Shown here in pieces: positions 12,294-44,817 of a DNA stretch of 64,000 nucleotides (the first letter of the stretch is position 1; each line of letters opens with the position of its first letter). The stretch is from Bdellovibrionota bacterium. GTDB taxonomy: Bacteria; Bdellovibrionota; UBA1018; CAIPTA01; JAALKR01. The stretch is taken from contig CBDBMJ010000001.1 in the NCBI GenBank assembly GCA_965207455.1, positions 352,001 to 416,000 on the forward strand, read 5' to 3'. The notes beneath the pieces were generated by a model that was given only the letters and a program-made list of their open reading frames with translations, was not told the origin of the DNA and made no database searches. The position numbers and the translations under genes are program-made.

Positions 12294-14399
12294 GTGTCTG
12301 AACTTCAAGGAAAAAATACTTTCTTTTCTGTAACAAAAAGTGCAGATTTGAGCGTTGCTGTCGGTCTGATAGGAATTTTGGTTTTGATGGTAATGCCCCT
12401 TCCCGCCTTCATTATCGATATTTTTTTGGCGCTTTCAATTGGTGGAAGTATCCTTCTTTTGCTTACAGCGGTATATGCTAGGCGTCCGTTGGATTTCAGT
12501 GTATTGCCGTCCATACTTTTGACGGCAACATTGTTTCGCTTAGCTTTAAACGTAGCCTCTACACGTTTAGTGTTATTAAATGGCCCAACTGAGGGGGCTG
12601 CAGCAGCTGGAAATATTATTCAGAGCTTTGGGGAATTTGTTGTTGGCGGTAATTACGCAGTCGGTATCATTATCTTCATTATATTAGTAATTATCAATTT
12701 TGTTGTAATTACAAAAGGAGCTGGTCGGGTAGCTGAGGTGGCAGCTAGATTTACCTTGGATGCCATGCCAGGTAAGCAAATGGCTATTGATGCGGACTTA
12801 AACGCAGGTGCCATATCGGAGAAGGAAGCCAAAGAGAGGCGAGAGACCATATCTAAAGAGGCTGACTTTTATGGAGCAATGGATGGTGCCTCTAAGTTTG
12901 TGCGAGGAGATGCCATTGCAGGCATCTTAATCGTTCTTGTGAATATTGTTGGCGGTATTATTATAGGAACGATTCAAAATGGAATGAGTATTTCTGATGC
13001 TGCTTCTGTTTTTGTACTTTTAACGGTGGGAGATGGTCTAGTAACTCAAATACCTGCATTAATAATTTCCACGGCAGCAGGTATAGTGGTTACCCATGCT
13101 AGCGGCTCTCAGGATTTGGGTGGTGAGGTTCGATCTCAGATGATGTCCCAGCCAAAATCATTGGCTATTGCTTCTTTAGTAATGGCTTTTATTGGGCTTA
13201 TTCCAGGGCTTCCTGCCTTTCCATTTCTTTTTATCAGTGGTTGTTTGGCCTATATTTTTCATCGAGTAACGAAAAGCAAACGGAAAGAAGAGGAAATGAA
13301 ACTTCAAAGAGAATCCATGGAACAGGAGAAATCTGCTGAAAATAAAATTGAAAAACTGTTGGCAATGGACGTATTGGAGTTGGAGGTAGGATATGGTCTT
13401 GTTAATATTGTCGATCCAGATCAAGGCGGTGAATTACTTAGTAGAATCAATCAAATCAGGAGGCAGTTCGCTTTAGAATTTGGAATTATTATTCCCTCAT
13501 TACGGATTAGAGATAATTTACAATTAAACCCAGGTGAATATAATTTTATTTTAAAAGGAGTTTCTTGTGGTAGGGCTGATTTGGTTACAGATCATTTACT
13601 TGCCATGGATCCGGGAAGTGTTGTGGAATCAGTACCAGGTATTGATACAAAAGAGCCTGCGTTTGGTTTACCTGCAATTTGGATTAATCCAAATAATAAA
13701 GAATTAGCTCAAATGAATGGCTATACGGTTGTAGATATTTCTACTGTTATAGCCACACATATTACGGAGTTATTAAGAAAGCATTTATATACATTGTTGG
13801 GTCGTCAAGAGCTTCAGACTTTACTGGATGGTATTAAAGAGGAATATCCAAAAGTTGTTGAGGATTTAATTCCTGGAATTCTTCCGGTTGGTACAATTTT
13901 AAAGGTACTGCAGAATTTGCTCCATGAAGGTGTTCCCATTCGTGATTTGAGGACTATATTAGAAATTCTTGCAGATGAAGGGGCTAGCTCTAAAGATGTG
14001 ATTCTGCTTACAGAGCGCGTGCGCTGCGGCCTTCAGAGGACAATATGCTCCCGCTTGGTGAATGAGGATAAGGAAATTCATATTTTAACATTAGAGAGGC
14101 AAATTGAAGAAAATATTGCCAATTCTATAATAAAAACGGAATCAGGTGTGGAAATTTCTCCTGATCCAGATTTTGTTCAGAAACTTTTAGGTGCTCTGAA
14201 TGTGGATGTGGCTCGTTCCATAGAAGAATATTCCCAATCTATTGTGTTGTGCTCACCATCAGTGAGGTATCACTTAAAGAAATTAATTGAGAGATTTATC
14301 CCGAATTTAATAGTTTTATCTCATGATGAGATATCCCCAGAAGTAAATTTAAAGTCAATTGGAATAGTGAGGTTAAATAATGCAAGTCAAGAAATTTGA
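12294..14399 (+). CDS. flhA: Export apparatus protein FlhA
   Basis: FHIPEP signature RVAEVAARFTLDAMPGKQMAIDADL. Confidence 0.98.
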   Translation: MSELQGKNTFFSVTKSADLSVAVGLIGILVLMVMPLPAFIIDIFLALSIGGSILLLLTAVYARRPLDFSVLPSILLTATLFRLALNVASTRLVLLNGPTEGAAAAGNIIQSFGEFVVGGNYAVGIIIFIILVIINFVVITKGAGRVAEVAARFTLDAMPGKQMAIDADLNAGAISEKEAKERRETISKEADFYGAMDGASKFVRGDAIAGILIVLVNIVGGIIIGTIQNGMSISDAASVFVLLTVGDGLVTQIPALIISTAAGIVVTHASGSQDLGGEVRSQMMSQPKSLAIASLVMAFIGLIPGLPAFPFLFISGCLAYIFHRVTKSKRKEEEMKLQRESMEQEKSAENKIEKLLAMDVLELEVGYGLVNIVDPDQGGELLSRINQIRRQFALEFGIIIPSLRIRDNLQLNPGEYNFILKGVSCGRADLVTDHLLAMDPGSVVESVPGIDTKEPAFGLPAIWINPNNKELAQMNGYTVVDISTVIATHITELLRKHLYTLLGRQELQTLLDGIKEEYPKVVEDLIPGILPVGTILKVLQNLLHEGVPIRDLRTILEILADEGASSKDVILLTERVRCGLQRTICSRLVNEDKEIHILTLERQIEENIANSIIKTESGVEISPDPDFVQKLLGALNVDVARSIEEYSQSIVLCSPSVRYHLKKLIERFIPNLIVLSHDEISPEVNLKSIGIVRLNNASQEI

Positions 14400-15705
14400 A
14401 GCTCCAACCATACAGGAAGCCATTAATGTTATTAAGCGTGAAATGGGTCCAAATGCGATTATTTTGTCTAAAAAAGAGCATAAAAAAGGTTTTGGATTAA
14501 TGAGTAAAAAATCTATTGAGGTTACAGCAGCGGTCTCAAATGAAGAAATAGAAAAGAAAAATTTAATTGAAAGAGATTTACCAGAGAAAGATAAAAAGGA
14601 GATTTGGAGTAAGACTGTAAAAAAACAAAAGAAAGTGTATGGAAATTATTTTGAAAATCAATTATCGAATCAAGATAAAGACAGCATTGAAATAAGTTCT
14701 TTGGCTAAAGATAAATCTCAAGAAGTAGTTACTCAGAAAAGATATGCTTATATTGATGGGGATGATATCGAGCCCATAAGTGAAGGAGAGGAAAATATTG
14801 ACTCTTTATTAAAAGAGGTAAATGGATTGAAACAAGTGGTTCGAGATATGGCTGCGGATCGAAAAAAAGTTCAATATCAAGATTCCCCTGATTTATCTAA
14901 TATGGATTGGAGTGATGAACTAATAGAGGCTTATCACATGCTTGCTAATTCAGGTATGAAAAAAAGTTATGTTCGTGAGCTTATTCAAGAGGTGAATTTT
15001 GATTTAAAAGATTCAGATTATACAAATAAGGAACTGGTTCAAGAAAGATTAGCTACATGTTTGATGAAAAAAGTAACAATAGCGGATCCATTGAAGAATG
15101 TGGGTGCTATATCAGGTACTTCTGATCCCTCTATTATTGCCATAATAGGCCCCACAGGTGTGGGAAAAACAACCACGATAGCAAAGATTGCAAGCAAGGC
15201 CACTGCTAAAAATATCAGAGTAGGTCTGGTGAATTTAGATTCTTATAAAATTGGTGCTGCAGATCAATTATCTATGTATTCAAAATTAATGAAGCTCCCT
15301 TTTCGAAATACAAGAAAAAAAGAAGAGTTACAGCAGATTTTATATGATTTCAGTTCATTAGATTTAATCTTGGTTGATACAGTTGGCTCGAGTCAAAAGG
15401 ATCAAGATAAATTAGCAGAAATAAAGGGGTTGCTTTCTTCTATTTCGGGAATTAAATCTTTGTTAGTTTTAAGTGCATCTACTAGAGGTTCTGATGTTTC
15501 TGACATTGTTAAAAGATATAGTATACTTCAACCTCAAGGGGTGATTTTTTCTAAGCTAGATGAAACCAGTGCTTTTGGTTCCATGTTTAATATTCATTTG
15601 TCTTCTAAATTGCCATTAAGTTATTTTTGTGTGGGGCAAAAGGTTCCGGATGACATTGAAATGGCAAGTTCAGAGAGATTGGCAGATTTAATTTTAGATT
15701 TATAG
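14380..15705 (+). CDS. flhF: SRP-type GTPase FlhF
   Basis: MQVKKFEA N-terminus, GPTGVGKTTTIAK, SKLDE, GQKVPDDI. Confidence 0.95.
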   Translation: MQVKKFEAPTIQEAINVIKREMGPNAIILSKKEHKKGFGLMSKKSIEVTAAVSNEEIEKKNLIERDLPEKDKKEIWSKTVKKQKKVYGNYFENQLSNQDKDSIEISSLAKDKSQEVVTQKRYAYIDGDDIEPISEGEENIDSLLKEVNGLKQVVRDMAADRKKVQYQDSPDLSNMDWSDELIEAYHMLANSGMKKSYVRELIQEVNFDLKDSDYTNKELVQERLATCLMKKVTIADPLKNVGAISGTSDPSIIAIIGPTGVGKTTTIAKIASKATAKNIRVGLVNLDSYKIGAADQLSMYSKLMKLPFRNTRKKEELQQILYDFSSLDLILVDTVGSSQKDQDKLAEIKGLLSSISGIKSLLVLSASTRGSDVSDIVKRYSILQPQGVIFSKLDETSAFGSMFNIHLSSKLPLSYFCVGQKVPDDIEMASSERLADLILDL

Positions 15706-15732
15706 CAATTACATAAAAAGGAGGGATATTTT

Positions 15733-16590
15733 TTGGAATCAAAACAAAATAAAAGTGAGAATAAAAAGAAATTATGGAATGGAGAGGACTTCATGCGTAT
15801 TATTTCTGTTACTAGTGGAAAAGGCGGTGTTGGAAAATCAAATATTGTTTTGAATCTTGGAATAGCAATAAGAAAAATGGGATTGCGTGTATTGATATTA
15901 GATGGAGATTTTGGATTGGCTAATATTGATATATTAATGAACTTAAATATAAATGCTACTTTGTTTGATGTTTTAAAGAAAGATAAGAGCATTGATGAAA
16001 TCATTTATAAAAGTAAATACGGCATAGATATTATTCCATCTAGCTCTGGAATGTTGAGTATGACAAATTTATCTATTCATGAGAAGGCGCAGTTTTTAAA
16101 TTGCATGAAAGAGCTTGAATGTAAATATGACGTACTACTTATGGATACTGGTGCAGGAATAAATAGTGATATGATTTATTTAAATACTTCAGCAGATGAT
16201 ATTTTTGTTGTTACTACTGGAGAGCCAACGTCAATAACAGATGCATATGCTGTTATAAAAATCCTTCATAAGGAATACAAAATTAAAAAAGTAAATTTAT
16301 TAGTAAATCAAGTTCGAGATGATAATGAGGGTCTTGCCATATACAATAGAATTCATGAAGTTAGTGATAGATTTTTAAATGTTAGAATTGACTATCTTGG
16401 TTCTGTGAGATGGGATTCAAATGTAGTCGATTCTGTAAAAACGAGTCATCCATTTTTATCAAAATATCCAAATGGAATGGCTTCTTTGAATTGCAAAGAA
16501 ATAGCAAGAAAAGTGTACCGCACTCAACATGAAAATAATTTTCATTTAAGTAAGAAATGTTTTTGGTCGGCTTTAGTGGATAGAGCTTAA
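15733..16590 (+). CDS. flhG: MinD-like ATPase FlhG/FleN (alternative start ATG 15793)
   Basis: SGKGGVGKS, DGDFGLANID, DTGAGI, EPTSITDAYA; between flhF and fliA. Confidence 0.93.
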   Translation: MESKQNKSENKKKLWNGEDFMRIISVTSGKGGVGKSNIVLNLGIAIRKMGLRVLILDGDFGLANIDILMNLNINATLFDVLKKDKSIDEIIYKSKYGIDIIPSSSGMLSMTNLSIHEKAQFLNCMKELECKYDVLLMDTGAGINSDMIYLNTSADDIFVVTTGEPTSITDAYAVIKILHKEYKIKKVNLLVNQVRDDNEGLAIYNRIHEVSDRFLNVRIDYLGSVRWDSNVVDSVKTSHPFLSKYPNGMASLNCKEIARKVYRTQHENNFHLSKKCFWSALVDRA

Positions 16591-16610
16591 TAAATTAATG
16601 GAGGATTAAA

Positions 16611-17444
16611 GTGAATAAAGAAGTAGAAAAATACAAGAGTGTGGAAAATGAAGAAAATAAATCTTCCAATGACTCATATAAATCGAAAGCGCCAAAAAAT
16701 ATTATTATAGAGGGTCTTACGAAAGAAGAGTTAGTTATTCGTTATGCTTATTTAGTGAAATATTTAGCTCAGAAATTGGTGGTGCGATTGCCGGCTAATA
16801 TTGAATTAGATGATTTAATTAGCGTGGGAGTAATGGGTTTGATAGATGCCATAGATAAATATGATCCAAACAGACAAAATAAGTTTAAAACTTACGCGGA
16901 GTTCAGAATTCGAGGTAGTATGCTGGATGAGCTTAGAGCTCAAGATTGGGCTCCCAGGAGCGTGAGGGAAAAATCCAAGCGATTAGAGCGGACTCATGCG
17001 CAATTGATGCAAAAAACAGGTAGACAAGCAACGGAAGAAGAGGTTCGTACAGAACTCAAAATGAATCGAAAAGAATACCATGACTTATTATATGAGATAC
17101 GCACTGTATCATTAGTGAATTTTGAAGATATAGGGACTCTCAAAAAAGCAGATAAGAAAGCCGTAATGGATCTTGTGGATAAAGGAATAGTGCCTAATCC
17201 GCTGGCGGAAGCTAGCCGGAATAATATTAAGAAAGTAATAGAAAATGCTATTTATGCTTTACCTGAAAAACAAAGACTAGTTTTATCTTTATACTATTAT
17301 GAGGAGCTTAATTTAAGAGAGATAGGAGGAATATTGAATGTGACTGAATCAAGAGTAAGTCAACTTCATACGCAAGCAATTGTTCGATTGAAATCTAGAC
17401 TTAAAAATAGATTTGATGAATTTGTACAAATGTTTAATAAATAA
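16611..17444 (+). CDS. fliA: Flagellar sigma factor FliA (sigma28)
   Basis: FKTYAEFRIRGSMLDELR, LYYYEELNLREIG.IL.VTESRVSQLH. Confidence 0.96.
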   Translation: MNKEVEKYKSVENEENKSSNDSYKSKAPKNIIIEGLTKEELVIRYAYLVKYLAQKLVVRLPANIELDDLISVGVMGLIDAIDKYDPNRQNKFKTYAEFRIRGSMLDELRAQDWAPRSVREKSKRLERTHAQLMQKTGRQATEEEVRTELKMNRKEYHDLLYEIRTVSLVNFEDIGTLKKADKKAVMDLVDKGIVPNPLAEASRNNIKKVIENAIYALPEKQRLVLSLYYYEELNLREIGGILNVTESRVSQLHTQAIVRLKSRLKNRFDEFVQMFNK

Positions 17445-17455
17445 AATATTATTTC

Positions 17456-18511
17456 ATGAGACGCGACATACAAAAAAATATGGGAAGATTGGAAGAGCAA
17501 TTAAGTGAGCTAGAGGCAATTGTACTTAATTGTCCTTTACAAGAAAACGCAAATAAGTTAATCGATAATATACAAACTGCAAAAATCCGATCGCAACATA
17601 TTCGAGAAGAGATAGAAGAAGATATACTGTGGGGAGAGTACCGTTCTTTGGAGGAATTTTGTGATAATTTATCTCGATTTATTATCAAGGAATCAAATAA
17701 AAAAGGAATTAATATTTCTTTGCTCACCCATTTTATAGGGAAAGTTCCAGAATCTATTTTGAATAAAGTAAAACCTATTTTGGAGAGTTTGTTATATATT
17801 TGTTTGGAACGATTACGTGAAGAAGGGATTGAGAAAAGACTTGAAGGCAATAAATTTTCTTCCTCCACATTGCTTTTCCAAGCAACTAGTGATCATGACT
17901 GTTTTCGTGTGAAAATTATGGATGACGGACCGAAAGATGGCGAGAGTGTTGTGAGAGAAAAAATAGATTTTTCTAATATAGTTGAGCTTTCTGGAATTTA
18001 CATGTTTCGAAAATTAGAAAGATATGGATTAAATTTTGAATTGAAAATTCCCATTCCGAGAGTTCGTCCCTTGGCCTATATACTGAAGTGGGAAAGAGAA
18101 GTTTTTGCTATTCCAGGAATTTCTGTTATTGGGAAAATGGAAAAGCTGTATTTTTCTGATTTCTTTATTTCTGATGAAAAATTATTATGTTCTGTTAGAT
18201 TTAAAAATGAAAAAATTCCTATTTTTATAGTAAAATCTGGTTTAGAGCGCTTAGATCAAGAAAAATTAAAATCCTATTCCACAGATTTCTTCTGTGTAAT
18301 TGTGGTTGGAACAGTGGAGACAAAAATGGCTATTCTTACGGAAAAGATTCCTGATAGGCAAATGGTTCGTATGCAATTATTGGAAAAGGTATTATCTGAT
18401 GATTCTTGGTATAAGGGCTTTGCAATGTTTGATGAAGAAGGTAAGGAAAAAGTGGTTCCTTTACTGGATAGTAAAAGTTTAGAAAATTACTGTAGGATGT
18501 ATGGGATATGA
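17456..18511 (+). CDS. Degenerate CheA-like protein (dimerisation, eroded HATPase and CheW-like segments; no Hpt domain)
   Basis: CheA-like order of segments: helical hairpin, KVKPILES, EKRLEGNK, RVKIMDDG, GLNFELKIP, FAIP; N-box Asn and G2 box not present. Confidence 0.6.
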   Translation: MRRDIQKNMGRLEEQLSELEAIVLNCPLQENANKLIDNIQTAKIRSQHIREEIEEDILWGEYRSLEEFCDNLSRFIIKESNKKGINISLLTHFIGKVPESILNKVKPILESLLYICLERLREEGIEKRLEGNKFSSSTLLFQATSDHDCFRVKIMDDGPKDGESVVREKIDFSNIVELSGIYMFRKLERYGLNFELKIPIPRVRPLAYILKWEREVFAIPGISVIGKMEKLYFSDFFISDEKLLCSVRFKNEKIPIFIVKSGLERLDQEKLKSYSTDFFCVIVVGTVETKMAILTEKIPDRQMVRMQLLEKVLSDDSWYKGFAMFDEEGKEKVVPLLDSKSLENYCRMYGI

Positions 18512-20808
18512 AATCAGCTTCTGTTAACTCTAGCTTTACTTCCTATTTCTCTATTCTTTGCCTGTCAATCTTGCTTTTCTATGCTTTATTCTTGGTGTAT
18601 GGCTCACTGAATGATGCGTCTCGCCTTGGACTGGAGGCAACGAAAAAAGTAAGAGTTTTATCTGGCTTAAAAGAGACTTTTAAAAATATTGAAACTCCAA
18701 AAGATTATATTTCTGCACGTAAACAGCTAAAAAAGAAAAAATTTAATGGATTTATAAAAAAAGAATTAAAAGAGATTGAATCTTGGTCCAATAAGGCAGC
18801 ACTATCGAATAAAACCTTAATGAAAAACAAAAGGCTAGTTTTTTCTGAGATTTTTTCTCTGCATAAAAAAAATATTGTACCAAGAAAAATGCGACCTATA
18901 ATTTCAAGATCTATTCAAAATGTAAATAAATTATTTATATCCAATAGTCGCCCTGAGTTCATCTTGTTATTTACGGACACAGAAAAAGAAAAATTTTTGA
19001 AAATGAAAAAAAGTCTATCCAATTTGCCTAGGCGATCAATTTCGAGTATTGATTATGTGATTAATGCTTTGAATAAGTTAAGTAAATCTGCAAAGAAAAG
19101 TGTTTCCTTGGGAAAAAACAAGAAGAGTGCTGTAAGAAATATTAACATTGCATTGAGTAAGGAGATTTCGGGAATAGAGTCGAACTTATTAAAAAATATA
19201 AATCAATTGCAGAGAAATTTTTATTTGTTCTTAGTTGTTGTTATGTTTGTGATTTTTATGAGTATATTTGGTGTGAAAATGAGTGGAAAAAGCATTTCAG
19301 CAGCATTTAAAAAGAAAAAGAAAACACTCGGTCTTTACTTGAGCTTGTATGGTTATGATAAACCTGAAGAAGTACTTAAAGAAGTAGATAAGGTTATGGA
19401 TGAAGATAAAGACTGGAATGATTTTATACGAGAAGTTGCTTATCATGAGAAAAAGTTTATAGAAAAAAATTCAGCAGAACTTTCTTTGAGCAGGAGTACA
19501 CATTTCCCATTTGTTGTTTTTTCTTCAGAAGGAAAGGCAATTTACTGGAATTCTCATTTAGTCCGTACTTTGGGCGTGGGTTCCTATGATGAGGTAGGTT
19601 CTCTTTCTTTGAAAGAGTTTTTTAATCAAAGTAGTTTCTTTGATAAAGATAGGAATTTTTTAGAATCCTTTCCTTTGCCTTATAATGAATTTAGTTCCAT
19701 AAAAGAAATGGAATGTTTGGATTTATTTTTAAGGACAACCAAACAAGAAATGTTGCCAATTCGAGCATATATATACCCAATAGATACAGGAAAATTATCT
19801 GGTGGTATTCTGGTAGGTTTTGAAGATAGGAGCGATGCGGAGGAAGAAATTTCAAGAAAAATCACTGAAACTATAATGATTTTAGATGATGTTATTACGG
19901 TGATTTCCGAAGATAGCACCCAACCGCTACCGTATTTAGACTTAGAATCTGTATCTCCACAAGTATTACCATTACTGGAGAAATTTAAACGCTTGCAAAT
20001 TCATTTGAATGAAAAAGCAGATATTTTTAGAAGTGAGTTGGCAGCAGTCTTGTCATACGTGCAAAAAGAGCAAGAAATTTTACACCATATTCACAGGGAG
20101 TCAGAGGATTTAAGCAGTAAGCAAGATATCTTGCATTCCGCATTAGAGCAATTGAATCGAACAGATGGAATTTTGTCAAAAAATTGTTCTCTTGCAGAGA
20201 ATAGATTGGAGAATTTAATTCAAAGATGGAAACGATTGACTGTCGATATTGAAAATAAAGATAAAGCTAATACTAAGGCGAAAAGCTATGAAAACCAAGT
20301 GCAAAAAGTAGTGGAACAAATGCAAGTATGGGTTAAAGCTTTTTCTGAAGCTGTGGAAGTTATGAGGGAATGTAGAGATTGGGTGAAATCAGAAGCTATT
20401 AACGTCAACTTAAATGACAAGGAAAACAAAGATGTTTTTAGAGGGCGTGTGAGAAAATTCTCTATTTCAGTTTCTGAATTTTTTCATCAATTGGAAGCTG
20501 TGGAAAAAGACTTAAAAAGCTTTATTGATAAGCACCCGGGAGGAATGGACTTTTTGGGTATTGATAGTGGTGTGGATCTGAATCCAGTATTGGAAGAGAT
20601 GAGTAAAACTTATGAAGATATGGCACAGTACCTCGCACAGTGGAAAGATGGAAATCGAAATATTAAAGAGGCTAGTCAGAAAGCAGAAAAATTTCAAGAA
20701 ATTATACAAAAGTATGATTTAGAATTGAAGGTTCTCAATAAAAACTCCCTTGTTTTAAATGAGAATGCTTGCCAAAGCCTTGTGAGATGGAGTTCACCAA
20801 AGGCTTAG
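18508..20808 (+). CDS. Membrane protein with PAS-like domain and degenerate MCP-like coiled coil
   Basis: Two TMs flanking an extracytoplasmic domain; PAS-like FPFVVFSSEGKAIYWN...GGILVGFEDRS; C-terminal EAINVNL...VRKFS resembles the MCP ALNAAIE...VRKLA; ATGA overlap with upstream gene. Confidence 0.55.
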   Translation: MKSASVNSSFTSYFSILCLSILLFYALFLVYGSLNDASRLGLEATKKVRVLSGLKETFKNIETPKDYISARKQLKKKKFNGFIKKELKEIESWSNKAALSNKTLMKNKRLVFSEIFSLHKKNIVPRKMRPIISRSIQNVNKLFISNSRPEFILLFTDTEKEKFLKMKKSLSNLPRRSISSIDYVINALNKLSKSAKKSVSLGKNKKSAVRNINIALSKEISGIESNLLKNINQLQRNFYLFLVVVMFVIFMSIFGVKMSGKSISAAFKKKKKTLGLYLSLYGYDKPEEVLKEVDKVMDEDKDWNDFIREVAYHEKKFIEKNSAELSLSRSTHFPFVVFSSEGKAIYWNSHLVRTLGVGSYDEVGSLSLKEFFNQSSFFDKDRNFLESFPLPYNEFSSIKEMECLDLFLRTTKQEMLPIRAYIYPIDTGKLSGGILVGFEDRSDAEEEISRKITETIMILDDVITVISEDSTQPLPYLDLESVSPQVLPLLEKFKRLQIHLNEKADIFRSELAAVLSYVQKEQEILHHIHRESEDLSSKQDILHSALEQLNRTDGILSKNCSLAENRLENLIQRWKRLTVDIENKDKANTKAKSYENQVQKVVEQMQVWVKAFSEAVEVMRECRDWVKSEAINVNLNDKENKDVFRGRVRKFSISVSEFFHQLEAVEKDLKSFIDKHPGGMDFLGIDSGVDLNPVLEEMSKTYEDMAQYLAQWKDGNRNIKEASQKAEKFQEIIQKYDLELKVLNKNSLVLNENACQSLVRWSSPKA

Positions 20809-21437
20809 CTAGAAAAACGGTTCCTCAGTGTAAAAACCAACTTTTGGACATTTTCCCTTAACTCAACCTCATTCCCCTCGTTAGGGATAATGTAGTCTGC
20901 ATGTTTGATCTTTTCTTCCTCAGGCATCTGAGTCCTCATGATTTGCTTTATCTGTTCCACGGGCATTCCATTTCGAAGAGTGATTCGTTGGATGCGAAGA
21001 TCTTCCGGTGCTGTAACACAGATAACGGCTTTAAGATGACTAGTGGATCCAGCCTCCAGTAGTACGGGAGCCTCGTAGATTATAATTTTCCCTGTGCTCT
21101 CTATGGCTAACTGTTGGGCTTTTTTGAGAGCCTGCCGTCGTATTTCAGGATGGAGGAGGGCTTCCAGTTGCTTGCGTTGTTCCGGATGGGTGAAAATTTT
21201 CTTTTTTAGCCATGGTCGTTTCAGGGCTCCTTCATGATCAAGGGCCTGGGATCCAAAGATTTCTACAATTTTAGGAAGAATGGGGCTTTGGGGAGCAGTA
21301 ATCTCACGGGCAATACTGTCTGCATCTAAGGTGGGAAAACCAAGCTCTTCAAAAAATTTTCGCACAGTGGATTTGCCCGAACCAATCCCTCCAGTGAGGC
21401 CCACCATAATAGGGATATCTTTTATTGTTTTAGCCAC
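20805..21437 (-). CDS. coaE: Dephospho-CoA kinase
   Basis: VGLTGGIGSGKST, LDADSIA, LLHPEIR, ADYIIPN. Confidence 0.96.
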   Translation of the reverse strand: MAKTIKDIPIMVGLTGGIGSGKSTVRKFFEELGFPTLDADSIAREITAPQSPILPKIVEIFGSQALDHEGALKRPWLKKKIFTHPEQRKQLEALLHPEIRRQALKKAQQLAIESTGKIIIYEAPVLLEAGSTSHLKAVICVTAPEDLRIQRITLRNGMPVEQIKQIMRTQMPEEEKIKHADYIIPNEGNEVELRENVQKLVFTLRNRFSS

Positions 21438-23664: not shown

Positions 23665-23856
23665 ATGAACAACAAAACAAAAAATAATGCGCTATGGTTA
23701 ACTGTTTTTTTTGCAGGGGTAGGACTGGTGTCAACTAGTTTTGCATTTGACGAAGGAGCTGAAGATTTGAGGGAGCGATCTCTGAATAATTCTAGAAGGA
23801 TTGTATCTGAGCCTCTATTTTCCACAGCCTCCTATAAGAAGATAGAAGCTCTTTAG
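23665..23856 (+). pseudogene. 5' fragment of a secreted-protein gene cut off by the IS remnant
   Basis: RBS and Sec signal peptide (MNNKTKNNALWLTVFFAGVGLVSTSFA); its 3' part is antisense transposase sequence. Confidence 0.6.
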
Positions 23857-25141
23857 GTGTTGCCTCTTCTATATTCGTACAAAGACCGGCAATACCATCC
23901 CATTTTCTATCTTCCTCGATTATTTTTTTATTTACAGCCACGCTGCCCTTAGATTTTTCCAGAAATCGTCCAATACCTCTATTTTGAGTAAGTTTTTTTG
24001 TATCAATGGTGCCGTCTTTTCCTTTTAATTTTTCTATCACACTCAAGATCTTCTCTCTCTTATATGCATCGTGTGCAGCTCTCTTTTGAGAATAAACTGC
24101 TACCACTCGTCTCCCATCATTGCAGAACTCGAATACGCTCCTATCTTCATCTATAGCGTTATAGTTATTTAAATTCAAAACTTCCTCCTGTAGCTTCTTC
24201 GTCATTTTCCTCAAAGGACAAGAGATAATATACTCCATAGAACGCTCACCATGATCTTCTTTATCTTCAAAATAAGAGAAGTTCTTTTTTGAGAACATTG
24301 CTTTATCCGCAGTCACTCGAATTTTATTTAATTTATATTTCTTCTTAATTTTTTCTAGGCAATGGATAAACGTTTTTGTTTCTGCGGTATTGCCTGGGAA
24401 TACCTCATAACTAATTGGTAAGCCATCGGAGTCTGTAAGCAGTGCAAGCACCACTTGTACTTCTTTAAATTTACTATCCTTGCTGAAACCAAAGTTTTTT
24501 AAATCTGTCACATTCGTATTTTCAAAGTATAGTGTCGTTACATCAAATAGCATAATATCTAAAGCCTGACTCTTATCTATCATTTTCCTTGATAATTTAG
24601 CCTTGATTTCCTCTTCTCTCTCAGAAAGATGGTCCATCATTCTGAGTATCTGGCTATGAGAGGATTGCATTTCAAATCTATCTAACATTACTTGGATAGA
24701 TCTGCGTTTACTAGATGGCTCAACATATCTGGCAAGCACGCAGTATTTCAAAACTTTGTTCCACTCTCTATCTTTTCTAGTATTTGAAATGATTTCATTA
24801 AGACCTAGCTGATCATAAATGAAACCGAGAATATCCGGAATACCATCATTAATAGCATCCCTCCCCTCAAGGTAACAAAGGCTTGTGGTAAGTGGAAGAG
24901 GAATGGGTTCTTGCTTTTGCTTTGTTTCCATTTCTGCTTTTATATTCAAAGCAATTTTTTTATAATACTCTATCATTTGTGGATCCTTGGATTGACCCAC
25001 TGTTTTGATTATTTCCTGCCTAACTTTTCCATTTATTCTGTATCCACGAACTAGGCGAACAACCGTATTATGGCAAAATAAAAATAATATTTTATTTTTT
25101 AAAGACGATGCTGACAAAATGTTTTTTCTATTACGACACAA
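23792..25141 (-). mobile_element. IS1634-family DDE transposase, truncated
   Basis: YRINGKVRQ, FDVTTLYFE, FGFSKD.K..EVQVVLALL...GLPI.YEVFPGN..E, VTADKAM, WDG..G..TN, YRRLWKIE followed by an abrupt stop. Confidence 0.9.
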
Positions 25142-34214: not shown

Positions 34215-34465
34215 GACTTTTGTTTTTATAAAAACGATTCTCAAAGATTCTGAATATACCTTTATAATAGCATAGATAAGGCTAATCGAGAGAAAATACC
34301 TGTTCAAAGGCATAGCTAAGTTTCATTCATATTTTTTTATACTGATTATCGTGTAGGTAATGATGTATTTTTTATACCGTTGACTTTTTGATGCGGTATG
34401 GAATAAAATAATATTTGTAATTATAAAAATAACAATAACACAGTGACAACTTGGAGGTTGCTATA

Positions 34466-36172
34466 ATGAAAAAATATATTTCTATCGTAATGATGATTAG
34501 CATTGGGATTTTATTAGGCAATATTGCCCAAACAAACACAAACAAATATATACAAATGTTAGACACTAAAGATCGTGTGCTAGGGGAAGCTATAGTAAAG
34601 TTTCGTCGAACAGAAGCACAGGTGGTGCAGATGGAAAATACATTGCTCTCTATGAATGTTTCTTCTTTTGAAATGTTTGCAACAGATAGTCGGTTTTTTA
34701 AAATTAAATTGGCTGATGATAAGGATATGGTTCGTTTTTTACAAGAAGCCAATAGAAATCCAAAAATATTGTACGCAGAACCTAACTATATCTATAAAGC
34801 AATCGCTAGTGAGGATTCAGGAACTATTCCTAAAGATACGGATTTTCAGAAACAGTGGGCTTTACACAATACAGGTCAAGAAGATTCTGGAGGACAAGTG
34901 GGAGTGGTTGGTGCAGATATAAATGCATTAAAAGCTTGGGAAGTAACCAAAGGTTCTAAAGATATAATAGTGGCAGTAATCGATACGGGTGTGGACTATA
35001 CTCACACAGAACTTACTAAGAACATATACCGTAATCCTGGAGAGAGTGGAGATGGCAAAGAAACCAATGGCATTGATGATGATGCTAATGGTTTTATCGA
35101 TGATCACGTGGGATGGAATTTTAGTGCTTCTAATAATGATCCCATAGATCAAGATGGTCATGGCACTCATTGCTCTGGAGTAATAGGTGCAGAAGGTAAT
35201 AATGACAAAGGTATAGTTGGTATTTCATGGAATGTGAGTATTTTACCCATTAAGTTTCTTGGGGTAGGAGGAGGAACAGCTGCACATGCTGTTCAATCTA
35301 TACAGTATGCTACAAAAATGGGTGCTCATATTATGAGTAATTCTTGGGGTGGAGGCTTTTTCTCTCAAGCAATCAAGGATGCTATTGGAGAAGCTGAGGA
35401 AGCAGGTATTTTATTTGTGGCAGCGGCTGGAAATTCCGGCAATGATAGCGATGCGCGCCCCCACTATCCGTCCAGTTATCCAGAAAAAAACATCATATCC
35501 GTAGCAGCAACAAATAACTCCGACGACTTAAGTTATTTTAGTACCTGGGGTAAGGAGTCTGTGGATATTGCAGCACCTGGGTCGAATATCTATAGCACAG
35601 TTATAAAGGAGAAGTATGCTAGCTTCAGTGGAACCTCCATGGCCACTCCTCATGTGGCAGGGGCTGCAGCCTTGTTATGGAGTATGGATAAAGAAATGAG
35701 TGCGGCAGAAATAAAAGATCGACTACTTCGTTCCAGGGATCCGAGCTTTGCCCTATACCGCAAGTTAGGCTTTAGTGGACGATTAAATGTCAACAATGCA
35801 GTTCGCGGTATTTTTCCTCCTAGGATTCAAATTCCAGAAGAAAATGAATGGATAGATGGAGAACTTGTTGAGCCTGTTGAATCTGCTCATCCGTATACAG
35901 ACCGTTTTTCCCAAAAATGGGTGATCCGTGGTCCAGAGAATGCGAAATTTATGCGAGTTCATTTCTCTCGACTGGAATTGGAAGATAAATATGATTTTGT
36001 ATACATTCTTGATAGTAAAGGTAGGCGCATGGATACTATTACTAGCACTTCTCCAGATGGAGCAAATTCATGGCTTGTATCGGGAAATGAATTGACGGTA
36101 GAGTTTAAAACAGATTTTTCCCAAGTGAAATGGGGCTTTGCTGTTGATAAATTTCAGTACGTCACAGAATAA
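34466..36172 (+). CDS. Secreted S8 subtilase with C-terminal CUB-like domain, copy 1
   Basis: Catalytic triad VIDTGVD / HGTHCSG / SGTSMA; ESAHPY...RVHFSRLELE..YDFV. Confidence 0.92.
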   Translation: MKKYISIVMMISIGILLGNIAQTNTNKYIQMLDTKDRVLGEAIVKFRRTEAQVVQMENTLLSMNVSSFEMFATDSRFFKIKLADDKDMVRFLQEANRNPKILYAEPNYIYKAIASEDSGTIPKDTDFQKQWALHNTGQEDSGGQVGVVGADINALKAWEVTKGSKDIIVAVIDTGVDYTHTELTKNIYRNPGESGDGKETNGIDDDANGFIDDHVGWNFSASNNDPIDQDGHGTHCSGVIGAEGNNDKGIVGISWNVSILPIKFLGVGGGTAAHAVQSIQYATKMGAHIMSNSWGGGFFSQAIKDAIGEAEEAGILFVAAAGNSGNDSDARPHYPSSYPEKNIISVAATNNSDDLSYFSTWGKESVDIAAPGSNIYSTVIKEKYASFSGTSMATPHVAGAAALLWSMDKEMSAAEIKDRLLRSRDPSFALYRKLGFSGRLNVNNAVRGIFPPRIQIPEENEWIDGELVEPVESAHPYTDRFSQKWVIRGPENAKFMRVHFSRLELEDKYDFVYILDSKGRRMDTITSTSPDGANSWLVSGNELTVEFKTDFSQVKWGFAVDKFQYVTE

Positions 36173-36398: not shown

Positions 36399-38114
36399 AT
36401 GAAAAAATATATTTCTATCGTAATGATGGTTAGCATTGGGATTTTATTAGGCAATATTGCCCAAACAAATACAAATAAATATACACAAATGTTGGATACT
36501 AAAGATCGTGTATTGGGGGAAGCTATAGTAAAGTTTCATCGAACAGAAGCAGGGGTGGTGCAGATGGAAAGTACGCTGCTTTCCATGAATGTCTTTTCCT
36601 CTACAGTGTTTGCAACAGATAGTCGATTTTTCAAAGTTAAATTGGCTGATGATAAAGATATGGTTCGTTTTTTAAAAGAGGCCAACAGAAATCCAGAAAT
36701 ATCGTATGCGGAACCTAATTATATCTACAGAGCAGTTGGCTATAAGGATTCAGAAATTCTTCCCAACGACACGGATTTTCAAAAGCAATGGGCTTTACAC
36801 AATACCGGTCAAAAAGATCCAAGAGGACTGGTGGGAGTGGCTGGTGCAGATATAAATGCATTAAAAGCCTGGGAAATAACGAAAGGTTCTAAAGATATAA
36901 TAGTAGCCGTAATCGATACGGGCGTGGACTATAATCATACAGATCTTGCTGCTAACATATATCATAATCCTGGAGAGAGTGGAGACGGCAAGGAAGCTAA
37001 TGGTATTGATGATGATGGCAATGGTTTCATCGATGATCATATGGGTTGGAATTTTTATATCTCTAATAATGATCCCATGGATCATATCGGTCATGGTACT
37101 CACTGTTCTGGAATAATAGGTGCAGAAGGCGATAACGACAAAGGCATCGTAGGTGTTTCATGGAACGTTAGCATTTTACCCATTAAATTTCTTGGCGGAA
37201 GAGGATCAGGAACAACTGAGGGTGCTATTCAAGCCATACAGTACGCCATAAAAATGGGTGCCCATATTATGAGTAACTCTTGGGGAGGAAGCAATTTTTC
37301 TCAAGGAATCAAGGACGCTATTGGGGAAGCCAAGGAAGCGGGTATTTTATTTGTGGCATCCGCTGGAAATAATGCTGAGGATAGCGATGCGTATCCTCAC
37401 TATCCATCCGGTTATTCAGAGGAAAATATCATATCCGTAGCAGCAACAGATAATTCCGATAATTTAAGTTCTTTTAGTACCTGGGGTAAGGAATCTGTGG
37501 ATATTGCAGCACCTGGAACAAATATCTATAGCACGATGAGAGATGGGTATGCTAGCCACAGTGGGACCTCCATGGCTGTTCCTCACGTGGCAGGAGCAGC
37601 AGCCTTGTTATGGAGTGTGAATAAGAAAATGACTGCAATGGAGATAAAAGATCGATTGCTTCGTTCCAGGGATCCCTACCTAAATCTATATCGTAAGTTA
37701 AGCGTTGGTGGTCGATTAAATGTTAATAATGCAATTCGCAGTATTTTCCCTCCCCAAGTTCAAATTCCAAAAGAAAATGAATGGATAGATGGAGAGCTTA
37801 TAGAAACCATTGAATCTTCCCATCCGTATGAAAACAATTTTTCTCAAAAATGGGTGATTCGTGGTCCAGAAAATGCAAAGTTTATGCGGGTTCATTTCTC
37901 TCGACTGGATTTGGAAGAGGCCTATGATTTTGTACACATTACTGGTAGTAATGGAAAGCGTATGGATAGTGTTTCCGGCCTATCTCCAGATGGACTGAAC
38001 TCATGGCTTGTGTTGGGAAATGAAATAACCATAGAGTTTAAAGCAGATTTGAACAAAACAGGATGGGGCTTTGCTATTGATAAATTTCAGTACGCTAGAG
38101 AGCATAGCCAATAG
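36399..38114 (+). CDS. Secreted S8 subtilase with C-terminal CUB-like domain, copy 2
   Basis: Same motifs; collinear paralog of 34466..36172. Confidence 0.92.
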   Translation: MKKYISIVMMVSIGILLGNIAQTNTNKYTQMLDTKDRVLGEAIVKFHRTEAGVVQMESTLLSMNVFSSTVFATDSRFFKVKLADDKDMVRFLKEANRNPEISYAEPNYIYRAVGYKDSEILPNDTDFQKQWALHNTGQKDPRGLVGVAGADINALKAWEITKGSKDIIVAVIDTGVDYNHTDLAANIYHNPGESGDGKEANGIDDDGNGFIDDHMGWNFYISNNDPMDHIGHGTHCSGIIGAEGDNDKGIVGVSWNVSILPIKFLGGRGSGTTEGAIQAIQYAIKMGAHIMSNSWGGSNFSQGIKDAIGEAKEAGILFVASAGNNAEDSDAYPHYPSGYSEENIISVAATDNSDNLSSFSTWGKESVDIAAPGTNIYSTMRDGYASHSGTSMAVPHVAGAAALLWSVNKKMTAMEIKDRLLRSRDPYLNLYRKLSVGGRLNVNNAIRSIFPPQVQIPKENEWIDGELIETIESSHPYENNFSQKWVIRGPENAKFMRVHFSRLDLEEAYDFVHITGSNGKRMDSVSGLSPDGLNSWLVLGNEITIEFKADLNKTGWGFAIDKFQYAREHSQ

Positions 38115-39005: not shown

Positions 39006-39141
39006 CAGTACACGGTATGGAATCCTTGAAAAATAAGGGTTTTTTTGTTTTTTGACACTATTATTTTGTCTATTTTTTCGTCACTTGAACAAAGAATTTG
39101 CACATATATGTGGTAGGCTGGTGGGGAAAAAGGAGTCTTGT

Positions 39142-40884
39142 ATGGAAACCTACCTATCCTTGCCCACGTACTTGCGTAGTTACTGTGTGGAGCAGGATTA
39201 TAATGCCTATACGGCAAGGGATCAGGCTGCATGGAGATATATCATGCGCCAAAATCGGAGTTTTTTCGACTCCCACGCATTGCCTATTTATATAAAGGGC
39301 CTAGCTGAGACGGGTATTTCCATTGACCGTATTCCTCGAATTTCTGAGATGGACAAGGCTTTACGAAAATTTGGTTGGGGAGCAGTGTCTGTTTCGGGTT
39401 TTATTCCTCCAGCGGCCTTTTTAGAGTTTCAGGCTCGCGGAGTTTTAGCCATTGCTTGCGACATGCGTACCATTGAAAATATTTTGTATACTCCTGCTCC
39501 GGATATTGTCCACGAGGCTGCTGGCCATGCCCCTATTATTGCGGATCCGTCCTATGCAAATTATTTAAAGCTCTATGCGAAGATGGCCCATCGAGCGATT
39601 TTTTCTTCTGAGGATATCGACGTATATGAGTCCATTCGTTACCTGTCGGACATTAAAGAAAACCCGGACACCACAGCCGCTCAAGTTAAGAAAGCAGAGG
39701 AGCGGTTTCAGGAAATGTCCCGGGCAGTAACCCATGTATCCGAGGCTTCCGAGGTTTCTCGTATGGCTTGGTGGACGGTGGAGTATGGTTTATTGGGTTC
39801 CATGGAAAAGCCGCTTATCTATGGAGCGGGTCTTTTATCTTCGGTGGGAGAGAGTCACGACTATTTGTCGGACAGGGTAAAGAAAATTCCTTTAAGCGTG
39901 GATTGTGTCAATGTATCCTATGATATTACCCGGCCTCAGCCCCAACTGTTTGTGGCAAAAGATATGGAAAACCTCACGAATGTATTGAAGGAATATGAAA
40001 AGACAATGGCATTTTGTACAGGGGGAAAAGAGGGTTTGGAGAAAGCGTTGCGAGCGAAATCCGTTATTACCATAGAGTTGGATTCCCGTTTGCAGATGAG
40101 TGGAACATTAGATTTTTATGAATTCAGCGACACCATAGACTTTATTAAGTTGGAGGGGCCGGTGCAATTAGCAGCTGAAGGTAGGCAGTTATTGGGGCAT
40201 GGAAGAGAACGTCACCCAAAGGGGTTTAGTTCCCCCATTGGTCTGTGGGAGAACTTTGAGGGTTTGCCTAGGGAGGCTAGTGACGAGGATTTGTGGCGTT
40301 TAGGGATTCGACATGGACAGGAGGCTACCCTTGTTTTTTCCAGTGGTTTTACGGTCACAGGCACTGTTGGGGGCTGGTACCGCAGGCAGGGAAAGCTCAC
40401 TTATATTACTTGGCGAAACTGCACTGTACGTTGTGGGGAGAAGGTATATTTTGAACCCAGTTGGGGAGACTTTGATATGGCTGTTGGCTGTAGTGTGGTT
40501 TCTGTTTTTGGTGGACCCGCTTCTTTTGAGGAGTATGGTTCCTATAACGTGGGTAGTGCTTCCACTACGCCTGGTAGAGTGAGTGCGTATAGTGAGCAGG
40601 AGGTTCGCACTTTTGACTTATACCGTAAGATCCAGGACTTTCGGTATAACGGTGTTTCCTCTCAGGAGTTGGAGGATTTTTTTCCATCCATACAGAAGCA
40701 TTGTAATGGGGAGTGGTTGCTTATTTTGGAGGTTATGGAGTTAGCGTTCCAGAAGGCTCATTTGGATCGTAAGGACACGCCATGGTTACAGTCTTTATAC
40801 GCAATGATTATGGATAGCAAAGGTAAGGGAAGTGCCCAAAAATTATTTCAAGAAGGTTTGCGTCTTGTGAATGTGGTTGATTAG
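39142..40884 (+). CDS. phhA: Aromatic amino acid (phenylalanine 4-) hydroxylase, long form
   Basis: YTPAPDIVHEAAGH and WWTVEYGL iron ligands, IYGAGLLSS, YDIT.PQPQLFV; AGGAG RBS before ATG 39142. Confidence 0.9.
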   Translation: METYLSLPTYLRSYCVEQDYNAYTARDQAAWRYIMRQNRSFFDSHALPIYIKGLAETGISIDRIPRISEMDKALRKFGWGAVSVSGFIPPAAFLEFQARGVLAIACDMRTIENILYTPAPDIVHEAAGHAPIIADPSYANYLKLYAKMAHRAIFSSEDIDVYESIRYLSDIKENPDTTAAQVKKAEERFQEMSRAVTHVSEASEVSRMAWWTVEYGLLGSMEKPLIYGAGLLSSVGESHDYLSDRVKKIPLSVDCVNVSYDITRPQPQLFVAKDMENLTNVLKEYEKTMAFCTGGKEGLEKALRAKSVITIELDSRLQMSGTLDFYEFSDTIDFIKLEGPVQLAAEGRQLLGHGRERHPKGFSSPIGLWENFEGLPREASDEDLWRLGIRHGQEATLVFSSGFTVTGTVGGWYRRQGKLTYITWRNCTVRCGEKVYFEPSWGDFDMAVGCSVVSVFGGPASFEEYGSYNVGSASTTPGRVSAYSEQEVRTFDLYRKIQDFRYNGVSSQELEDFFPSIQKHCNGEWLLILEVMELAFQKAHLDRKDTPWLQSLYAMIMDSKGKGSAQKLFQEGLRLVNVVD

Positions 40885-43377: not shown

Positions 43378-44817
43378 ATGAATATATATCTTTGTTCGGA
43401 ATACAACGAATTGTCAGAGCGGTCAGGCATTGCTCTGTGGGACACGCTTATTTCCAACAATCGAGGTTCCGTTGTATTGGATTCAAAAATATCTGTTAAG
43501 GGAACGTATCGTTTCTTTTTAGACATCATAAAAAATTCCAGCATCAAGCTAGACAGGTTTCACTGGTACTATCCTTTTGAACTTATAGGTTCTTCGGGGG
43601 AAGGGCCTTTGGCCGAGATGCTCCACAAGCATTTGATGAATGAATTAAATATAAATAAAAATAAATTCCATGCTTGGCCTCAAGATAGGTCCAAAGCCCA
43701 GGAAGCGGTTTTGGGTTGGGAAAAAGAATTTGAAAGGGATCCACCCGTTGTTTCTGTATTGGGATTGGATGAAAATGGCGGTATTGGTTTTAATGAGCCG
43801 GGTAGTTCTTTTCTTTCTTCTACTCGACTATTAAAGCTAAAACCAGATGCCCAAGAATCCTTGAAGAAATTTTTTCCAGAAAAAACAGTGCCCAAGGAGT
43901 CTATTGGTTTAGGTATCCGAACTCTCTTGCGTTCTCAAAAAATTATCCTTATCGTCACTGGAAAAGAAAAAGCACGGGCATGGGCTAATGTGCTTCGTGG
44001 AGAAATCAGTCCAAAATATCCAGCGAGTTTTCTTCGACTTCACGATAATGTGGATGTATTTCTAGATACAGAGGCTGCATCGAACTGGCAAAATATTTCT
44101 AAACTTTCTGGAAATGAAAATCATGTTATCCGGGATATTATTGAGGGAAATATATTATTTATGTCTCCGTATTCCAATGGGGCAGGCCTAGTTGCAGGAG
44201 GCTTGTTGAGTCGATTGGCGACTATGCGAAATACAAAGATTATTAATTTTTATTCAGGCCATCGTCACCCTAGTTTGAATGGAACCCGTGAAGAAAGGAT
44301 TGAACTGCGTAGGAAGGAAAGCCTAGAGGAAGCTAAAATACTTAATTTATCCAGCTATTTCGCAGATTTTATGGGTTACGATTTCGACTACAAACTAAAT
44401 ATGCAGGACGTGGAAGCATTGAAAAAACAAATTAATGAATTCGCTCCATGCCATATTTTTATGCCAAAATTAAACCATGTTGAGTTGGGATGGTATGCTT
44501 GTACCCAACTTACGTTGAAGGCACTGGAGGGGGTAGCTATAAACCGTCCTCTATATGTCTGGTTCTATGAAACCCCTTGGAATCTTTTTCAACCGGAACA
44601 AATCAATACTTTTGTGCCGTTGAGTTCCCATGAGCTCAATAAAAAATTATGCGCTATCGGAGTGAATCACTCTCAAGTTCAACACGTTCCCTATAATGAT
44701 GTGGCAATTTCTCTGGCTCGATTTCGCGCTATTGTGTCCGAAAGGAAGCAGTTTTCTAAACAAAATAAAGAACTAAGCAAACATATAGAGTGTTTTCTAA
44801 GGGTACAGATAGCTTAG
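43378..44817 (+). CDS. NagB-like domain fused to a PIG-L deacetylase-like domain; catalytic residues missing in both
   Basis: GFNEPGSSF.S.TR, VP..SI.LGI.T, PASFLRLH..V..FLD.EAA; R..ES..EA..L, FYETPW, K..AI....SQ. Confidence 0.8.
   Translation: MNIYLCSEYNELSERSGIALWDTLISNNRGSVVLDSKISVKGTYRFFLDIIKNSSIKLDRFHWYYPFELIGSSGEGPLAEMLHKHLMNELNINKNKFHAWPQDRSKAQEAVLGWEKEFERDPPVVSVLGLDENGGIGFNEPGSSFLSSTRLLKLKPDAQESLKKFFPEKTVPKESIGLGIRTLLRSQKIILIVTGKEKARAWANVLRGEISPKYPASFLRLHDNVDVFLDTEAASNWQNISKLSGNENHVIRDIIEGNILFMSPYSNGAGLVAGGLLSRLATMRNTKIINFYSGHRHPSLNGTREERIELRRKESLEEAKILNLSSYFADFMGYDFDYKLNMQDVEALKKQINEFAPCHIFMPKLNHVELGWYACTQLTLKALEGVAINRPLYVWFYETPWNLFQPEQINTFVPLSSHELNKKLCAIGVNHSQVQHVPYNDVAISLARFRAIVSERKQFSKQNKELSKHIECFLRVQIA

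Follow-up and report, generated by a model that had tools for sequence, protein, structure and literature searches.

A conserved CheA derivative and a receptor-shaped membrane protein at the end of a flagellar operon in Bdellovibrionota

Few parts of bacterial signalling are as conserved as CheA and the receptor tip. Two adjoining genes behind fliA in a Bdellovibrionota bacterium, here called ORF1 and ORF2, recall both of these parts in altered form, which raises the question of what the two proteins are and what they now do. The genes lie in a 64,000-nucleotide stretch of contig CBDBMJ010000001.1 (the window), in a genome (G000) of 2.38 Mb in 3 contigs that is 94.7% complete. ORF1 (17456-18511, plus strand) encodes 351 amino acids and starts 11 nt beyond the fliA stop, and ORF2 (18508-20808, plus strand) encodes 766 amino acids and shares an ATGA overlap with the end of ORF1. 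An initial annotation, made from the sequence alone, proposed that they are a CheA and a chemoreceptor that diverged together into a kinase-dead scaffold or polar landmark; its coordinates, lengths, gap, and overlap were all correct on recheck, and the motifs it quoted are all present in the translations. We found that ORF1 is a CheA derivative and that the pair is real, conserved, and apparently undescribed; its function we infer. To our judgment the chances are even that the pair derives from a chemosensory core, persists as a conserved relic without kinase activity, and now serves the flagellum as a membrane scaffold and sensor that is not an enzyme.

The CheA derivative behind fliA

Single-sequence Pfam and NCBIfam scans missed both proteins as relatives of CheA or of methyl-accepting chemotaxis proteins (MCPs). 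For ORF1, the Pfam scan returned CheW only (E 0.2), and a search of 5.8 billion proteins returned only the query itself. Protein Data Bank matches from the single-sequence search (internalin, tropomyosin) were dismissed as chance. A seven-row profile of ORF1 orthologues matched solved CheA structures at E 5.8e-7, with one stretch covering P3-P4 and another P4-P5, and the AlphaFold model of ORF1 (pLDDT 71) matched CheA 1b3q and 6s1k (Foldseek E 2.3e-11; Z 14.8 and 13.1). The large whole-chain root mean square deviation (rmsd) in these comparisons probably reflects domain orientation. Among 1.8 billion cluster representatives, 31 proteins were found at E values up to 1e-30, nearly all of 296 to 364 amino acids, followed by long CheAs; members of the ORF1 family range from 296 to 368 amino acids. 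Compared profile to profile, the family matched canonical CheA with a probability of 99.8 and E 2.9e-29 over 302 columns, and language-model features placed ORF1 with CheW/CheA clusters (0.94, 193 shared). The proposed tracing of CheA domains P3, P4, and P5 is therefore borne out by the orthologue profile and the structural match.

The domains follow one another in the CheA order on the plus strand. Residues 1-60 (17456-17635) form a P3-like two-helix dimerisation hairpin, with helices at 2-24 and 29-60 in the model, that aligns with CheA P3 and falls under the threshold of Pfam H-kinase_dim. A P4-like GHKL fold without its catalytic equipment comes next (17636-18055), with Ile115 at the position of the N-box Asn, the G1 residues DDG kept at 156-158, and the F box and G2 lid deleted; residues 159-192 of the model are of low confidence. 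Residues ~201-351 (18056-18508) form a P5/CheW-like domain that matches CheW 2qdl (Z 11.4, rmsd 3.4, 129 aligned) and the structure 4jpb (TM 0.69 by target).

The initial annotation also held that the Hpt domain, the N box, and most of the ATP lid including G2 are lost, and the family alignment agrees. The alignment held 46 ORF1-family rows (48 minus P0076 and P0133, which were left out as near-canonical CheAs of other origin) and 60 canonical CheAs, chosen from the 85 of 106 matches that carry the N-box and G2 patterns; conservation of the canonical rows at these two motifs is by construction, because they were chosen on them. The N-box Asn was retained in none of the 46 family rows, the F-box columns were gapped in all 46, and the G2 pattern GxGxG[ML] occurred in none. 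The distance from G1 to the linker was 39 to 52 residues in the family versus 84 to 89 in canonical CheAs, so that about 40 residues of the lid are deleted. Other positions were partly kept. In the G1 box (DxGxG) the Asp was present in 42 of 46 rows, the first Gly in 33, and the second Gly in 26, with ORF1 reading DDGPK, and the Arg of the EER segment (39/46), the G3 Gly (38/46), and the linker Pro (43/46) were also retained. No Hpt match was found at the ORF1 locus. ORF1 begins at P3 just past the fliA stop, too close to it for an Hpt domain to fit in between; P2 is absent as well. GHKL kinases cannot do without the N-box Asn, needed for Mg-ATP, or the lid, needed for nucleotide. By its motifs, ORF1 is a dead kinase.

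In a quick CheA tree, which names no donor CheA, a branch with weak support (33) set off 16 ORF1-family rows, whose branches are long. The two excluded proteins P0076 and P0133, also lid-less, sat apart from the family among canonical CheAs, indicating that lid loss arose more than once. Both are CheA-like proteins of ~365 amino acids that lack Hpt and the G2 lid and whose N box is damaged. The first-ranked Atlas cluster (82 members, commonest in Campylobacterota) may be another Hpt-less, lid-less CheA-like family. At L055:3866-6126 (G088), a small MCP is followed by a 402-amino-acid frame with weak similarity to CheA P4-P5 (E 1e-8), possibly a short CheA derivative.

The receptor-shaped membrane protein

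ORF2 has the transmembrane, periplasmic, transmembrane, PAS, and coiled-coil layout described in the initial annotation, as supported by hydropathy, a PAS_9 match (Pfam, E 0.0019), and the structural model (pLDDT 78, pTM 0.33), whose periplasmic part is all-helical and which also shows a PAS domain and a long hairpin. Two transmembrane segments (residues 16-34 and 238-256) enclose an all-helical HBM-type periplasmic domain (35-237; the three together at 18553-19275). They are followed by putative HAMP-like helices, the PAS domain (~333-442), and a second putative HAMP-like segment (19276-19965), and then by a cytoplasmic antiparallel helical hairpin (residues 487-762, 19966-20793). In the model, one helix runs from 487 to 632, the chain turns at 633-637, and return helices extend to 762. 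The periplasmic part matched the TorS sensor (Z 12.2, rmsd 3.1, 190 aligned), McpS (Z 11.7, rmsd 2.7, 191 aligned), and PilJ (Z 11.1). A Foldseek search with ORF2 returned mainly PAS matches, the Atlas clusters returned were HAMP/PAS (0.93), and a protein-database search with the ORF2 profile found only itself. With HAMP segments predicted from the Atlas clusters and the helix pattern, ORF2 would have the complete transmembrane-sensor-transmembrane-HAMP-hairpin architecture of MCPs.

Is the hairpin an eroded MCP tip, as the initial annotation proposed? The turn of the model lies where the tip had been placed, and Asn632, at the start of the turn region (residues 632-637, 20401-20418), lines up with the tip Asn of MCPs and is nearly invariant across the class. 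In a pooled ungapped scan, the MCP tip profile scored best on NANNSILG of the ORF2 subfamily from families f8 and f9 (z 4.0 and 4.2), a placement that keeps the register of the MCP tip. The corresponding site ranked second (z 3.0) in the subfamily of the window, where the turn is by eye about six residues shorter. The hairpin also matched MCP 2ch7 (Z 11.5, rmsd 7.8, 275 aligned) and HAMP-Tsr (Z 11.0), values that tie with those for a dynein stalk (Z 13.0) and SMC (Z 11.6). However, the signature is eroded beyond what sequence scores pick up. None of seven ORF2 members matched Pfam MCPsignal (PF00015), the local MCP profile gave E 0.11 or worse for all 18 class homologues, and neither local nor global hhalign of the hairpin against 35 true MCPs reached significance in any subfamily. 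A methylation-type site, by a consensus pattern, was found in 0 of 24 ORF2 homologues (the 18 class members and 6 of 22 from family f22, described below) versus 31 of the 35 MCPs. MCP ancestry of the hairpin is likely, fitting the architecture and a weak sequence signal.

Distribution, selection, and chemotaxis context of the pair

The ORF2 profile matched 19 of 127 genomes of the class, and 18 were retained; the other (G054) had weak partial matches only. The 18 carriers belong to four families: that of the window (G000), f2 (8 of 9 genomes), f8 (7 of 10), and f9 (2 of 2). ORF1 lies just upstream of ORF2 in 17 of the 18 loci; in G006 a contig break parts the two, yet ORF1 follows fliA there too. 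Both genes thus occur together in all 18 genomes, with frames that touch or overlap, and the 18 ORF2 matches contain no internal stops. NCBI labels the homologues as from an Oligoflexia or Bdellovibrionota bacterium. Reading past fliA in 20 further loci of the class showed the pair in 4, a contig edge in 1, and no pair in 15. G002 (96% complete), which has flagellins and MotB, lacks the pair and a flagellar fliA match; this lack may be an assembly gap or a real loss. In the sister genome G001 (88%), the flagellar operon contains neither gene and fliA stands directly against coaE.

A similar large membrane protein came to light in f22, a family of a second class that holds Halobacteriovorax and Bacteriovorax, when the DNA beyond fliA was read in 20 genomes from other classes. 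The f22 profile matched the class ORF2 profile with a probability of 97.8 and E 9.7e-13 over 520 columns. The receptor-like gene follows fliA in all 22 f22 loci fetched, with a gene of 296 to 321 amino acids intervening in 10 and none in 12, and genome-wide it is present in 67 of 67 f22 genomes. The upstream gene is present in 29 of the 67 and missing in 38, which indicates that the ORF2-type gene is the core and its partner dispensable. This universal receptor-like gene with a dispensable partner is new here. Neither f22-type gene was found in the other families sampled (for example, 0/34 in f18 and 0/35 in f21). The f22 proteins are recorded as hypothetical (Bacteriovorax stolpii WP_102244735/6; Halobacteriovorax marinus BMS_0567, CBW25478.1). 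The f22 upstream gene may be an ORF1 that has eroded further; we treated it as a positional counterpart only. Its protein gave no hidden Markov model match to ORF1, hhalign E values of 0.35 and 0.56, and E 0.023 with a probability of 2% over the N-terminal 108 columns; global scores were slightly above shuffles in 10 of 10 comparisons, and no plasmid match was found. Two shortened f22 receptor-like proteins (loci L164 and L166) have no upstream partner, and the receptor-like gene at G334:C4:67905-69399 is broken by stops. Canonical profiles detected an intact cheA or MCP gene after fliA in none of 40 loci of other classes, so the ancestor of the pair was not caught.

The initial annotation favoured two genes that stay open and coupled over decay. 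The coupling stands for the 18 class carriers and is not obligate, given G001 and the f22 genomes without the upstream gene. The argument against decay is supported by purifying selection in relatives, with dN/dS (Nei-Gojobori with Jukes-Cantor correction) of 0.24 to 0.30 for ORF1 (three f2 pairs) and 0.09 to 0.32 for ORF2 (seven pairs); the upstream gene of f22 gave 0.12 and 0.22. These values are rough because dS, at 1.0 to 2.5, is near saturation, and one saturated pair was left out. All pairs came from relatives, the copies in G000 standing outside the comparison; both G000 frames are full length.

We additionally examined which chemotaxis genes accompany the pair. In G000, Pfam MCPsignal, CheW, CheR, and H-kinase_dim gave no match, with positive controls matching, CheB not searched, and ~5% of the genome possibly missing. 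H-kinase_dim alone is a weak negative, since it also misses true CheAs in G001 and G004. Local profiles built from relatives found no MCP, CheW, CheC/X, CheR, or CheD among 15,260 G000 frames, and the CheA profile found ORF1 (E 7e-16) and, weakly, two ordinary kinases. G000 does have flagellins and MotB, two small frames that resemble Hpt, and three single-domain receivers, and FliM retains what we take to be an N-terminal CheY-binding-type motif. No CheA3-like partner lies beside ORF1, and elsewhere in G000 only the small stand-alone Hpt frames were found. At G000:C1:1305824-1307158, an msrA-like gene on the other strand separates a single-domain receiver from a nearby stand-alone Hpt-like gene. 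These results show that the pair is independent of a chemotaxis system in G000. G026 (92%) retains the pair and two MCPs and had no CheW or H-kinase_dim match. Most carriers also have a separate intact mcp-cheW-cheA-cheY operon. Five loci of relatives (L046-L048, L051-L052) show a divergent layout, with cheC/X-like and cheY-like genes on one strand and mcp-cheW-cheA on the other and no adjoining cheR or cheB; this layout is absent from G000. Built from CheA and MCP parts, the pair is by membership neither a CheA, an MCP, nor a chemosensory system.

The fixed upstream context of the pair is flhF-flhG-fliA (14380-17444, plus strand), the end of a fliI...fliM-fliN-fliOPQR-flhBA operon, and the same order is found in relatives. 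FliA was identified by its sigma-70 regions; flhF and flhG were named from sequence motifs. The GC content of ORF1 and ORF2 is in line with that of the flagellar genes, with GC3 of 0.26 and 0.29 in a flhA-fliA range of 0.21 to 0.30. A scan of the window for the exact sigma-28 consensus, with zero mismatches allowed, found none and is uninformative. On the other side, coaE (20805-21437, minus strand) converges on ORF2 with overlapping stop codons; it is outside the module and forms the downstream edge in most relatives. FliA carries an N-terminal extension of 50 to 130 residues in most families of the class (L056-L075) and lacks it in the order of the window. Farther along the window, a transposase-like frame (23792-25141, minus strand), presumably IS1634-like, lies between an aminotransferase gene and an HD-domain membrane gene and interrupts the coaE-HD synteny seen in relatives. 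Judged by look, the window also encodes a tandem duplication of subtilisin-like proteases that carry a CUB-like domain at the C terminus (34451-36172 and 36399-38114), a long phenylalanine-hydroxylase-like protein (39052-40884), and a fusion of glucosamine-6-phosphate deaminase-like and deacetylase-like domains (43378-44817).

Proposed role and comparison with known systems

The pair is kept in G000, where no working chemotaxis genes were found, and therefore likely has a new, non-enzymatic flagellar job. ORF1 and ORF2 would be co-transcribed with flhF-flhG-fliA, and ORF2 would form a dimer in the inner membrane; like receptors, it would probably sit at the pole. ORF1 may dimerise via P3, its P5 domain capping or cross-linking ORF2 tips as CheW or ParP would. 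A signal from the HBM and PAS domains could then pass by contact, rather than by phosphate, to proteins of flagellar placement or assembly, with FlhF and FlhG as the first candidates. ORF2 would be the core of such a device and ORF1 an accessory dropped by some lineages. We offer a broader version only tentatively, as possible and still doubtful: that a chemoreceptor and CheA were co-opted, before two Bdellovibrionota classes split, as an organiser at the pole that dispenses with phosphorylation. It would read cues from periplasm and cytoplasm, direct FlhF/FlhG as to the timing and site of flagellum assembly in predatory bacteria, and have outlasted the loss of all chemotaxis.

Of the scaffold or landmark role put forward in the initial annotation, the conserved, dead CheA derivative and its tie to flhF-flhG-fliA stand; descent of ORF2 from an MCP is likely, and binding between the two proteins and a polar-landmark role are predictions. 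Besides the tied and non-significant MCP comparisons of the hairpin, several findings weigh against the scaffold-and-sensor proposal. The upstream gene is missing from most f22 genomes, and two f22 receptor-like proteins (L164:848-2770 and L166:818-2734; ~640 amino acids) end before the tip. Most flagellated relatives (f4, f5, f18, f21, and others) lack the pair, which is therefore not needed for the flagellum in general. Both proteins diverge rapidly: between G004 and G007, identity is 24% and 27% for the two versus 55% for true CheA and 87% for FliA. Polar localisation and the partner of the pair are guesses from gene order.

The data can also be explained by an ORF2 that is a stand-alone HBM-HAMP-PAS-coiled-coil sensor, for which MCP descent is unnecessary, beside an ORF1 that does not bind it. 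The MCP profile matches of ORF2 were not significant, and the ORF2-type gene stands alone after fliA in 12 of 22 f22 loci. However, the two genes stay together with touching or overlapping frames in all 18 class genomes, the MCP tip profile falls in register on the f8/f9 turn, and a CheA derivative would be unlikely to adjoin a receptor-shaped protein by chance; we regard this explanation as unlikely. If instead the pair were a decoy or modulator within ordinary chemoreceptor arrays, damping the true CheA, the separate intact chemotaxis operon of most carriers would supply the arrays. But both genes are open in G000 though no MCP, CheW, or CheA was found there, G001 has the intact operon and no pair, and the residues that let receptors mix are gone from the ORF2 tip, which leaves a decoy quite improbable.

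Long branches, a patchy distribution, the 38 of 67 f22 genomes that have lost the upstream gene, and the broken gene in G334 might suggest a slowly eroding relic, held open by weak selection only and on its way out. To this we give a slim chance: dN/dS was well below 1 in all seven ORF2 and all five upstream-gene pairs computed, the ORF2-type gene is in every f22 genome, lengths and domain order are held across two classes, and the class matches are free of internal stops. Finally, ORF1 could be an active split kinase that phosphorylates a stand-alone Hpt protein feeding CheY, and the two Hpt-like frames, the three receivers, and the presumed CheY-binding-type motif of FliM in G000 would serve such a route. 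The Mg-binding N-box Asn is gone in 46 of 46 rows, though, and the ATP lid is deleted, both of which GHKL kinases need. An active split kinase is thus very improbable, even though the domain set of ORF1 equals that of Rhodobacter CheA4 (PMC6829392).

If the scaffold-and-sensor proposal is true, arrays can be put to a structural use instead of serving as a kinase switch, with both partners shedding catalytic or signalling residues yet staying under selection. The f22 receptor-like gene, universal in this family of cultured predators as sampled and annotated as hypothetical, offers a direct knockout target for flagellum placement and timing. The two proteins also expose a blind spot, because single-sequence Pfam and NCBIfam scans overlook both. 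A full-text literature search, with subscription papers and supplements outside its reach, returned no description of the ORF1/ORF2 family or of BMS_0567.

Several known systems bear comparison. ORF1 shares with the CheA core (PDB 1b3q, 6s1k, 3ja6) the fold and order of P3, P4, and P5, the G1 Asp, and the Pro of the P4-P5 linker, but lacks P1/P2, the N-box Asn, the F box, G2, and the ~40 lid residues. As in the MCP-CheW-CheA core signalling unit, its neighbour has receptor architecture; unlike in that unit, no CheW, CheR, or MCP was found in G000, and the ORF2 tip is eroded and without methylation sites. The periplasmic part of ORF2 is predicted to be a bimodular helical bundle of ~190 residues like those of the HBM receptors McpS, TorS, and PilJ (PDB 2yfa, 3o1h, 8wdf; Z 11-12), although identity is ~8% and such Z values are within reach of helical bundles by arrangement alone. 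ParP of Vibrio and Pseudomonas is a non-catalytic CheW-fold protein at receptor tips that serves working arrays. HubP/FimV are polar landmarks, membrane anchors linked to FlhF/FlhG placement. A gene position near flhF-flhG-fliA is a further point in common with these systems. The likeness of the pair to ParP and HubP/FimV is an analogy, with no sequence relation seen and none tested; in contrast to ParP, ORF1 keeps P3 and a dead P4, and no working array was found in G000. The nearest architecture to ORF1 is that of Rhodobacter sphaeroides CheA4, an active kinase without a histidine domain that is paired with CheA3 (PMC6829392). Like CheA4, whose P5 binds receptors (PMC6829392), ORF1 has P4 and P5 and no histidine domain; it differs from CheA4 in having lost the ATP-site motifs and in standing beside no CheA3-like partner.

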